From a virus: a stretch of DNA of 20,187 bases. The translations under genes and the position numbers were made by a program. A model generated the notes under the pieces. That model saw only the letters and a list, made by a program, of their open reading frames with translations, did not search any database and had not been told where the DNA came from. Positions 4,731-6,675 of this stretch are shown here, in pieces (the first letter of the stretch is position 1; each line of letters opens with the position of its first letter). Where the stretch lies: positions 80,820-101,006 of the IMG/VR virus record IMGVR_UViG_3300014348_000112. One strand, written 5' to 3'.

Positions 4731-5011
4731 TGCGTACCCTACCCCATAACGCCCTAGAGCTAGGCCCCCTGGCCGGCCCTTGGATCGACGCGACCGCCTT
4801 CGACGAACACCACGTGACGCTGGCCGAATTAGATGCAGCCGCCGCTTTCCCGGCTGACTGGAGCAGGATTCTAGATGCGCGTCCTTTTACTGGCGTAACG
4901 GCTATAATTCACGATTTCGTCCGGCCCCATGTGCGCGGCGAGGGCGACGTAATCGAGCACCAAACCATCGTCCACGCCAAGGGACTGGCCACGATCATGG
5001 CGTTCGCCTGA
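4730..5011 (+). CDS. hypothetical protein (93 aa)
   Basis: TAATG coupling, AAGGA RBS. Confidence 0.6.
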   Translation: MRTLPHNALELGPLAGPWIDATAFDEHHVTLAELDAAAAFPADWSRILDARPFTGVTAIIHDFVRPHVRGEGDVIEHQTIVHAKGLATIMAFA

Positions 5012-5033
5012 TGCGCGCGGTCGTAATTGATAC

Positions 5034-5062
5034 TTGACAGTTTTTGCTTTTGGGTGTATAAT
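5034..5062 (+). promoter_or_regulatory. Early promoter P2
   Basis: TTGACA-17 bp-TATAAT; near-identical to P3. Confidence 0.9.
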
Positions 5063-5120
5063 ACTCTTGACGGCACAGAGAGGCCACACCGGCCATCACC
5101 CACAGCAAGGAGACCAGACG

Positions 5121-5501
5121 ATGAGCAACACCAGCCGCAGCCTACGCCAAGAGGAAATCGACAGCTACAACCGCCAGCGCTTCATCGACCAGGTGCTGGC
5201 GGCCATCGCCAACGGGCGCAAGGTACGCTTCCTGATCCACAAGCGCAACTACAGCCTGGTCGAGGTGCAGAAACGCACCACTGGAGAGTACGAGTTTCAG
5301 GTAGCCGACCGCTCCCGCTACACCTACCGCATGAGTGACTTCATCCAGTTTCTGGAGACCATCTACGACAGCGGCGCCGAGATCATCAGCCTGACCGGCG
5401 AGGCCGAGATCACCGCCGAACGACAGACCGCCAACGCCGACGCCGAGCCGGATCACGACTACGAGATCGCCAAGCGCCAGGAGGCGCAGAAAGGAGAGTA
5501 A
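5121..5501 (+). CDS. hypothetical protein (126 aa)
   Basis: CAAGGAGACC RBS; MSNTSRSLRQEE... Confidence 0.8.
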   Translation: MSNTSRSLRQEEIDSYNRQRFIDQVLAAIANGRKVRFLIHKRNYSLVEVQKRTTGEYEFQVADRSRYTYRMSDFIQFLETIYDSGAEIISLTGEAEITAERQTANADAEPDHDYEIAKRQEAQKGE

Positions 5502-5589
5502 GCCCTGAACACAAACCCCGGTCCCGGACAGCCCCGCCGCTCAAACGTAGCCAATCGTGCGACGCGGCGGGGCAGTGGACCGAGACACC

Positions 5590-5638
5590 GCCGTCGCTGG
5601 GTGTGTGCCCAGCCCGATGAAGCGAAAGCAGAAACGGC
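5590..5638 (+). ncRNA. Type III hammerhead-like ribozyme (variant core)
   Basis: GCCGU-C / GCUGGG(U)..(G)CCCAGC / CCGAUGA / AGC-GAAA-GCA / GAAA-CGGC; deviates at U4->C and has a weak stem II. Confidence 0.45.
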
Positions 5639-5738
5639 ACCTTACCACCAGAATGAAGCGGCTGAATAACGAGGCGTCGGGACGCCTACACGTTGATTGA
5701 TCCCAACGTGAGACTGCGCACCACTTGGAAATGACCAA

Positions 5739-5874
5739 GCCCGTGTAGCTCAAACGGCAGAGCAGCCACCAGCACTTACAGCCGGGCGATGATCCCTCCC
5801 GGACTAAGTAGAAGGCAAGCTGATCACTTGCTGGCTGAAATGGAAGGTTGGAAGTTCAAGTCCTCCCACGGGCA
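5739..5874 (+). ncRNA. tRNA-like RNA with ~60-nt structured insertion in the anticodon arm (136 nt)
   Basis: Acceptor GCCCGTG/CACGGGC+A, TA-GCTC-AAACGGCA-GAGC D arm, GGAAG-TTCAAGT-CCTCC T arm; no encoded CCA; anticodon not assignable. Confidence 0.65.
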
Positions 5875-6115
5875 GCGCGCAGTGTAGGCCGCAAAAACAG
5901 CAATCAATACGACAGTACCTTACCAACCTCACAACGCACCCGTCGCCCATCAACGGCGACGCCCCAGGCAGGAGCGCTGTCAGCGGGAAAACCGCTGAAG
6001 CTGCGGCGAAGCCGAAAGCCCGCCGGCCCAGCGCTCCGGGCCGAACCCCGATACCACGGTGGGCGCCGGGTTTGCCGGCGAGTGAGCGTGAGGACCAGCA
6101 CAAGGAGACCGCCCC

Positions 6116-6409
6116 ATGAACTGCCCCTGCTGCGGCAAGCCCATCAGTCAGAAAGACCTCAACACGCCCTACATCGACCGCCACGGGCACGCCATCAGAG
6201 GCGTCTACGAGCACAGCCGCTGCGGCGCCGTGCTGGGCCAGTGCTACAAGGGCGACGCCTACGGCATCTACATCCCCCAGTGGGCGCCGGCCGACACGCC
6301 AGCCGAGAACCAGCGCTACTTTGACCTGACCGTGCTGGGCAGCGCCGGCATCGAGCGGGTCCACGGCTGGTTCGATATCGAGACCCGCAAGCTGACCCGG
6401 GTCGGCTGA
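6116..6409 (+). CDS. hypothetical protein, Cys/His-rich N-terminus (97 aa)
   Basis: CAAGGAGACC RBS; CPCC...HxxC. Confidence 0.8.
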   Translation: MNCPCCGKPISQKDLNTPYIDRHGHAIRGVYEHSRCGAVLGQCYKGDAYGIYIPQWAPADTPAENQRYFDLTVLGSAGIERVHGWFDIETRKLTRVG

Positions 6410-6456
6410 GCACAAGGGCCGGGGACCGCAACCCGGCCCGAAGGAGGAACTACCCC

Positions 6457-6675
6457 ATGCACGACGAACAGACCTTCCCTGCCGGCACCATAGCGGAGTG
6501 CAACCGCTGCAAGCAGTTCAGCCCGTTGCCCAAGCCGTGCCTGGGCCATCTGGAGGCGCCGACATCCGAGTTTCTCTCCGCCGTCTACCGCCTGGACACC
6601 ATGTGCCTGCTGGGCTGCGGCCACATGGACGCCCACTGGGTGCTCGTTACGCCGGAGAAGGAGGCAAGCTCGTGA
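6457..6675 (+). CDS. putative zinc-binding small protein (72 aa)
   Basis: AAGGAGG RBS; CNRC...CLLGCGH. Confidence 0.7.
   Translation: MHDEQTFPAGTIAECNRCKQFSPLPKPCLGHLEAPTSEFLSAVYRLDTMCLLGCGHMDAHWVLVTPEKEASS

Follow-up and report, generated by a model that had tools for sequence, protein, structure and literature searches.

What is a gap of 614 bases, filled with apparent RNA structures, doing between two small co-directional genes of a phage? We addressed this question for a stretch of 20,187 nucleotides (hereafter, the window) from the virus record IMGVR_UViG_3300014348_000112 of IMG/VR (positions 80,820 to 101,006 of that record), in which the gap, or island, occupies positions 5502-6115 between the genes that we denote A and B (Table 1; coordinates are those of the window). 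An earlier note on this DNA, made from the letters alone, had described a non-coding island of about 600 nt with consecutive structured RNAs, and had taken it for a polycistronic non-coding RNA (ncRNA) precursor that is transcribed from the promoter P2 and processed into small RNAs. Here, we report that the gap is non-coding, that it carries structures which are conserved and covary on the + strand, and that it is modular, with presence/absence polymorphism. Judging from sequence comparison, the island is a mosaic of three modules, namely, the 3' end of gene A, an inserted block, and the leader of gene B. We consider the chances about even that this mosaic serves as an mRNA-processing and leader region within the early operon.

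The codon-position signature of the neighboring genes is absent from the gap, which indicates that the gap is non-coding: its GC content at codon positions 1/2/3 is 0.65/0.63/0.59, whereas the flanking genes have 0.87-0.94 at position 3 (0.87 in gene A) and 0.38-0.47 at position 2. The open reading frames (ORFs) within the gap produced no Pfam match, and both observations bear out the non-coding gap of the earlier description. The + strand of the gap folds with z = -3.1, none of 20 shuffles folding equally well, and it folds better than the - strand, each strand being compared with its own shuffles. On direct reading, every structural element listed in the note was found in its place, and so were both copies of the recurring linker sequence, ACCTTACCA, of which exactly two exact copies, 278 nt apart, are present in the 101-kb contig. 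A scan of the whole window against Rfam, one of the checks that the note had proposed, detected a single family, tRNA, with a score above the gathering threshold (Table 1); at a permissive threshold, the hya and STnc450 families were matched at chance level only and were discarded.

The modular organization became apparent from the relatives of the island, which are metagenomic only and of which four were compared for the modules. The first, L014, is an 818-nt contig encoding a gene A product 71% identical to that of the window; it aligns with positions 5469-5643 and then directly with positions 5937-6030, such that ~5644-5936 are missing, the break falls at ACCTTACCA, and the hammerhead is joined straight to the leader. 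The second, L039 (2.8 kb), obtained by a pattern scan of metagenomes, contains, in this order, gene A, a hairpin, a hammerhead-like fold, an unrelated closed fold of ~140 nt, ACCTTACCA, and the remaining island as far as the ATG of a gene that is not gene B. Through this differing downstream gene, we retrieved L216 and L217, in which the part from ACCTTACCA to the ATG lies ~155 nt behind a promoter that shares the TTGCTTTTGGGTGT box of promoter P2, and gene A, the hairpin, and the hammerhead are all absent. Each of the relatives carries a different RNA in the slot behind the hammerhead. Furthermore, the gap is lacking altogether from relatives of either gene, A or B, at 50-89% identity (the closest one for gene B being P0007), so that the island is tied to neither. 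No nucleotide relatives of the island were detected in the phage collection, in plasmids, or in genomes from the relatives and the class of the host (61, then 401), and searches of IMG/VR for the portal, gene A, and gene B found no relative. In L216 (70-223; L217 alike), two tandem hairpin-forming repeats of ~45 nt (CTCGTCTATGAC.GCAGGC.CAGC.GCCACACAG) separate the promoter from the ACCTTACCA leader.

The first module combines the hairpin H1 with a variant of the type III hammerhead ribozyme. In the latter, stem III (5590-5594 with 5634-5638; GCCGU/ACGGC) is followed, inwards, by stem I (5596-5601 with 5608-5613; GCUGGG/CCCAGC, loop UGUGUG), the core CCGAUGA (5614-5620), in which C replaces U4, stem II, A-GC-GAAA-GC-A (5621-5630), in which A5621 and A5630 form an A-A pair at 10.1-11.1, and GAA (5631-5633), after which A5634 pairs with U5594. 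The GUC triplet places the predicted cut after C5595. The minimum-free-energy (MFE) structure is the three-way junction both in the window and in L046, one of three AT-rich phage contigs (L043, L046, and L047) that were found by scanning for CCGANGA plus the stem II sequence. In these contigs, the entire spacer of ~95 nt between two genes consists of a GC hairpin and then the same fold, with a stem I that reads AUAUGG/CCAUAU where the window has GCUGGG/CCCAGC, the remainder being identical. In the alignment of the five sequences, 100% of the cells pair, five of the six stem I pairs are changed on both sides (none in slid controls), and N7 is the only core position that varies. The hairpin-hammerhead pair is kept in five sequences from two very different phage backgrounds.

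Natural hammerheads are known to flank phage genes (Perreault et al. 2011; PMC3088659), and among them there are stems II of two base pairs, mismatches at 10.1-11.1, including a U-U mismatch that is active, and a viroid hammerhead with U4C whose activity is low in vitro yet suffices in vivo (PMC3088659). Like the type III hammerheads of phages and prophages (RF00008; PMC3088659), the island element has three helices in the type III order (III-5', H17, hairpin I, the place of CUGANGA, hairpin II, GAA, III-3'), the GUC triplet, G5 A6 N7 G8 A9, G12 A13 A14, the A15.1-U16.1 pair, an H17 that is not G, a short stem II, and a location between small co-directional phage genes. It differs from them in having C for U4 and the A-A pair at 10.1-11.1, in escaping the Rfam models, in the GC hairpin that always stands in front, and in the invariance of loop I (UGUGUG) and stem II across distant phages. 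The stem II sequence AGCGAAAGCA recurs in hammerheads of type I that have the canonical core, CUGAUGA, on IMG/VR contigs and in Rhizobiales metagenome-assembled genomes (MAGs). The members of this type I family (L015, L017/18/20/22, and L021 from IMG/VR; L056, L082, and L087 from the MAGs) share the A-A pair at 10.1-11.1, whereas stems I and III vary from member to member and still pair; in L082, the ribozyme lies directly behind the T-arm-like GGTTCAAGTC. Two additional hammerhead candidates were rejected: a degenerate second copy at the right end of the block, for which the alignment was no better than with shuffled sequences (p = 0.46), and a second C4 candidate elsewhere on the contig, which proved to be coding sequence.

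H1 is built of the stems CGGTCC/GGACCG and GCCCCGCCGC/GCGGCGGGGC. In L014, both stems are kept, with a loop that is 17 nt longer and one C-to-U change that yields a G-U pair; L039 differs in the sequence of the inner stem, which still forms a hairpin (z = -5.0); and in the AT-rich phages, the equivalent place is taken by a GC hairpin of 7-8 bp. An intrinsic terminator was considered and rejected for H1, given that no U tract follows position 5582, that a scan of positions 5000-6600 for terminator-like sites on the + strand came back empty, and that the AT-rich relatives likewise have no U tract. We propose that H1 may instead act as a stabilizer of the 3' end of the gene A mRNA.

The third module, the leader of gene B, was aligned from the window, L039, L216, and part of L014. 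Across its helices (H5, the junction helices P1-P3, and the hairpin at 6055-6090), 98% of the cells pair and eight pairs are changed on both sides, compared with 3.6 +/- 1.2 in shuffled alignments, none of 500 of which reach eight, and with 0-2 in slid controls. In H5, two pairs are changed on both sides and one is changed to G-U, with 100% of the cells pairing. The three-way junction consists of P1 (5971-5979 with 6029-6037), P2 (5980-5986 with 5992-5998), and P3 (6000-6008 with 6021-6027, tip 6011-6019), with two, one, and three pairs, respectively, changed on both sides, 94-100% of the cells pairing, and 0-2 such changes in slid controls. The hairpin at 6055-6090 is kept in L039 and L216 with a variable loop and one change from A-U to G-U in the outer helix; having no covariation, it is only consistent with a structure. 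The G-U replacements in H1, H5, and the junction helices P1 and P2 fit RNA of the + strand only. The view of consecutive + strand RNA structures that the earlier note had taken, with covariation as one of its proposed checks, is thus backed by compensatory and G-U changes in H1, the hammerhead, H5, and the three-way junction, including the eight leader pairs and the five pairs of hammerhead stem I. Because conservation of the leader extends as far as the start codon in L039 and L216 despite the different gene downstream, and is the 5' leader of an operon in L216, we read it as a leader that would act in cis. No Rfam family matched the three-way junction, and a pattern scan for the junction was empty; the hairpin and the three-way junction together make up a small leader motif that is apparently undescribed.

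Between these modules lies the lineage-specific block, which is missing from L014 and replaced in L039 by the unrelated closed fold. The block is predicted to be closed by two helices (5658-5663 with 5887-5892, and 5713-5719 with 5877-5883) and to contain hairpins at 5672-5687 and 5689-5710 and a small one at 5724-5739, in addition to a tRNA-shaped RNA. The latter has a perfect 7-bp acceptor stem (GCCCGUG/CACGGGC) with A as the discriminator and no encoded CCA, U8, a D arm with G18G19, and a T arm with UUCAAGU and G53-C61, with one A-C mismatch in the T stem. In place of the anticodon arm there is a branched insert of ~70 nt (72 nt where 9 are expected), and the anticodon stem in the canonical register has three of five pairs. 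The insert can form a hairpin with an 11-nt loop and another one with a 5-bp stem and a 7-nt loop, GCAAG-CUGAUCA-CUUGC, which resembles a GAU anticodon arm, although position 37 is a C. ARAGORN failed to find this gene in default mode and reported it in intron mode only, with an implausible model, and no single deletion, also when checked by hand, gives a 5-bp stem and a 7-nt loop with U33 and a purine at position 37; ARAGORN runs on all deletion variants were too permissive to be informative. This is the only tRNA-like gene on the contig.

The first phage tRNAs for which introns were noted are those of Lak phages (Devoto et al. 2019; PMC6784885). For comparison, we searched IMG/VR with a tRNA pattern that places 70-100 nt between the D and T arms and obtained more than 116 loci, 56 of which combine a perfect acceptor stem with a location in a tRNA array; 34 of these 56 become canonical after one deletion, mostly in the 5' strand of the anticodon stem. 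Among these loci (L096-L211, for example, L205, L208, L121, and L188) are phage arrays with many tRNAs of 115-140 nt and inserts of 43-73 nt, in which the restoring deletion usually falls at 28|29 or 29|30. One frequent type of insert comprises a closing helix, a hairpin YCA-UGUNYG-UGR, and NN-ACAGCAA, and a second type has a GUUAC end just 5' of the anticodon stem. Both the 'enigmatic intron' tRNAs (PMC6784885) and the YrlA Y RNAs (RF02553) resemble the island RNA in the intact acceptor/D/T framework, in tens of extra nucleotides in the anticodon region, and in being encoded by phages. Unlike the insert-bearing phage tRNAs, however, the island RNA regains a decodable anticodon arm by no deletion, carries an insert unrelated in sequence, and is a single gene outside any tRNA array; unlike the YrlA RNAs, it comes with no detectable Ro60 gene, nor does the window contain a match to YrlA. 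Pattern scans for its T arm and for the gene with its insert produced no matches, and no homologue of the block was found in the phage collection, in plasmids, in the 61/401 genomes of the host's relatives and class, or at the 116 insert-bearing tRNA loci.

Several other identities for the tRNA-shaped RNA were rejected. It was not called as a tmRNA by ARAGORN; the insert is far too short for a group I intron; inspection by eye revealed the bulge-helix-bulge motif of the respective introns at no candidate junction; and the assembled tRNAs of the host, which do not include tRNA-Ile(GAU), are not near-identical to it, as a copy at an attachment site would be. As for a Y RNA acting with Ro60, no TROVE gene was detected in the 96%-complete genome, under conditions where control genomes were detected, and RF02553 had no match in the window. 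On a host contig (G000:C63:26636-26749), there is a sub-threshold match to YrlA (RF02553; 35.8 bits against a gathering score of 69), which is probably a tRNA-like chance hit, with no Ro60 gene found in the bin.

From these features, we infer cleavage, enzyme recruitment, and all the functional roles in the following model. The untranslated gap would be transcribed from promoter P2 together with genes A and B, within the early operon. The hammerhead would cut itself after C5595 and so separate the message of gene A from the downstream message; the gene A message would be left ending in H1, which may shield it against 3' exonucleases, and the downstream RNA would begin with a 5'-hydroxyl on the folded body of the hammerhead. 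The tRNA-like upper body might then offer a handle to tRNA-processing enzymes (RNase P, 3' trimming), which would result either in a second processing point or in a stable tRNA mimic. The slot behind the ribozyme appears to have picked up a different RNA in each lineage, and the gene B leader could act in cis on the stability or the translation of the downstream message.

Processing signals and tRNA-like substrates of RNase P are familiar from phage transcripts, as exemplified by the RNase III hairpins of the T7 early region, the T4 tRNA cluster with its stable RNAs, and the C4 RNA of P1/P7. The proposed arrangement resembles these systems in that structured non-coding spacers in an early polycistronic transcript would set the mRNA ends and that a tRNA shape would provide a handle; it differs in that the cut is predicted to be made by the RNA itself. 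A U4C hammerhead that is conserved across lineages and tied to a hairpin stabilizing the 3' end would add a testable model for the ribozymes located between phage genes, one in which the fates of the neighboring messages are uncoupled. The recombination slot, in turn, would let phages carry varied ncRNAs, including a tRNA-shaped RNA that is unable to be an ordinary tRNA.

Several observations weigh against this model. The core departs from the consensus C3 U4 G5 A6 N7 G8 A9, with C4 in all five type III relatives, and this U4C change is known to lower activity in vitro (PMC3088659). A-A stands in place of a Watson-Crick pair at 10.1-11.1, and an Rfam search of positions 5450-6150 reported no hammerhead family at E values up to 10; the type I relatives likewise go unscored by the Rfam hammerhead models. 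As the metagenome pattern for the type III relatives demanded C4, the universality of C4, and the clean division into C4 for type III and U4 for type I, are in part a matter of ascertainment. Covariation comes from only 4-5 sequences of 2-3 lineages. The fold energies are modest (z = -1.7 for the block and z = -1.0 for the tRNA-like RNA), the fold of the block rests on energy alone because it has no homologue, and the block could be a decaying tRNA gene.

That last point leads to an alternative in which the block is a neutral recombination scar, that is, a decaying tRNA gene plus hairpins, the latter merely preventing Rho loading or nuclease attack on an untranslated stretch. This scenario would account for the dispensability of the block, which L014 does without, for the missing homologues and the weak fold energy, for the A-C mismatch in the T stem and the degenerate anticodon stem, and for the short direct repeat on both flanks, such as illegitimate recombination leaves behind. 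We nevertheless deem it rather unlikely, considering that the acceptor stem is perfect, that the identity residues of the D and T loops are intact, that the ends of the block are predicted to pair, and that the same slot in the relatives is occupied by other closed folds and not by random sequence. The precursor of the earlier note, cut into discrete stable small RNAs that act in trans as decoys of tRNA-targeting defenses, antitoxin mimics, or regulators, shares some of this evidence: the island comprises several closed, independently folding domains with A/C-rich single-stranded linkers between them, the content of the slot varies (the closed fold in L039, the tandem hairpin repeats in L216) as exchangeable cargo would, and the tRNA-like RNA retains the residues that form the elbow. 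What stands of that proposal is a non-coding RNA downstream of a perfect promoter P2 with no terminator-like site on the + strand in between; a single dedicated precursor is not supported, given that the relatives separate the island into three modules, two of which are accounted for by their neighbors as an mRNA 3' module and an mRNA leader. The suggested roles of decoy, antitoxin mimic, or regulator found no support: tandem repeats resembling ToxI (type III antitoxin) are absent, the 96%-complete genome yielded no Ro60 gene, and the collections searched contained no homologue of the cargo. We regard a dedicated precursor as unlikely. Still a little more doubtful is an extension that joins it to the processing model, whereby the site 3' of the hairpin-hammerhead and before the ACCTTACCA leader would be a cargo bay for swapped closed ncRNAs. 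Here, the cargo would be a non-decoding tRNA mimic, freed by the ribozyme and tRNA-processing enzymes and acting in trans, for instance, as a sponge for a tRNA-targeting defense nuclease or a tRNA-modifying enzyme.

The tRNA-like gene might also be a working tRNA with an unusual intron, spliced and then decoding. Precedents exist in the reported tRNA introns of Lak phages (PMC6784885) and in the more than 116 IMG/VR loci, where inserts of 40-70 nt lie between the D and T arms and 34 of the 56 with perfect acceptors turn canonical after a single deletion; the host genome encodes RtcB, and the GCAAG-CUGAUCA-CUUGC hairpin looks like a GAU anticodon arm. In the island, however, a proper anticodon arm results from no single deletion, the GAU hairpin has C37 and would leave a variable region with 18 unpaired nucleotides, the anticodon stem in the canonical register and the ARAGORN intron model are as poor as described above, and the gene is a lone one on its contig, with an insert unrelated to those in IMG/VR; splicing to a functional tRNA is improbable on these grounds. 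The least credible option is that the hairpins work as DNA, in a replication origin, a packaging site, or an operator array. In favor of this option, inverted repeats are indeed dense in the gene-free region, but the G-U replacements in H1, H5, and the junction helices P1 and P2 would turn into A-C mismatches in a DNA cruciform or in the opposite strand, folding relative to shuffles is better for the + strand than for the - strand, no iterons were found, and the elements lie inside an operon.

Table 1. Features of the island and its flanks in the window
Feature	Position	Strand	Description
Promoter P2	5034-5062	+	TTGACA, 17 nt, TATAAT; sigma-70-type, 12/12 matches; TTGCTTTTGGGTGT box in spacer
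Gene A	5121-5501	+	126 aa (P0001), hypothetical; ATG start behind AAGGAGA
Hairpin H1	5519-5582	+	64 nt, GC; 6-bp outer stem and 10-12-bp inner stem; z = -4.5
Type III hammerhead variant (candidate)	5590-5638	+	Directly after H1; MFE structure is a three-way junction
Left ACCTTACCA copy	5639-5647	+	Extendable to 14 nt with 2 mismatches; borders on its left the segment missing in L014
Lineage-specific block	5648-5916	+	269 nt, flanked by the ACCTTACCA repeat
tRNA-shaped RNA	5739-5874	+	Rfam RF00005, 38.6 bits against a gathering score of 29
Right ACCTTACCA copy	5917-5925	+	Opens the conserved leader; position shared by L039 and L216
Hairpin H5	5941-5961	+	CGTCGCC/GGCGACG; 6 bp and 7-nt loop at 5942-5960
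Three-way junction	5971-6037	+	Closed by GGAGCGCTG/CAGCGCTCC
Hairpin	6055-6090	+	Outer helix CACG/CGUG, inner helix CGCCGG/CCGGCG
Shine-Dalgarno sequence and gene B start	6102-6118	+	AAGGAGA at 6102-6108; ATG at 6116
Gene B	6116-6409	+	97 aa; N-terminus MNCPCCGK, CxxC motif

The window corresponds to positions 21225-41411 of the source contig, G000:C111, which is 101,061 bp long and has a GC content of 64%, compared with 60% in the bin as a whole. The two contig ends overlap by ~55 nt, the last 50 bases being repeated at position 5 from the contig start, which indicates a circular, phage-like contig; a portal gene is located on its minus strand. This circular assembly was binned with a bacterial MAG of lower GC, and the assignment of the host is uncertain. 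In the + strand array, hardly any gene could be matched to a family. The TTG 'start' of a longer ORF (5034-5501) coincides with the -35 box of promoter P2, so the actual start of gene A is the ATG at 5121; gene A had no match in Pfam or PHROG. The promoter with the TTGCTTTTGGGTGT spacer is common to the window (5034-5120) and L216, which has at least two copies (30-70 and 2173-2216), and its presence in both this phage and L216 suggests that promoter cassettes travel with the leader modules. In L035, a relative of gene B that encodes a small CxxC protein (599-877) is situated ~900 nt upstream of a Mom-family gene (PF25680; 1763-2383), a neighborhood that hints that gene B could encode a Com-like zinc-finger RNA-binding regulator.

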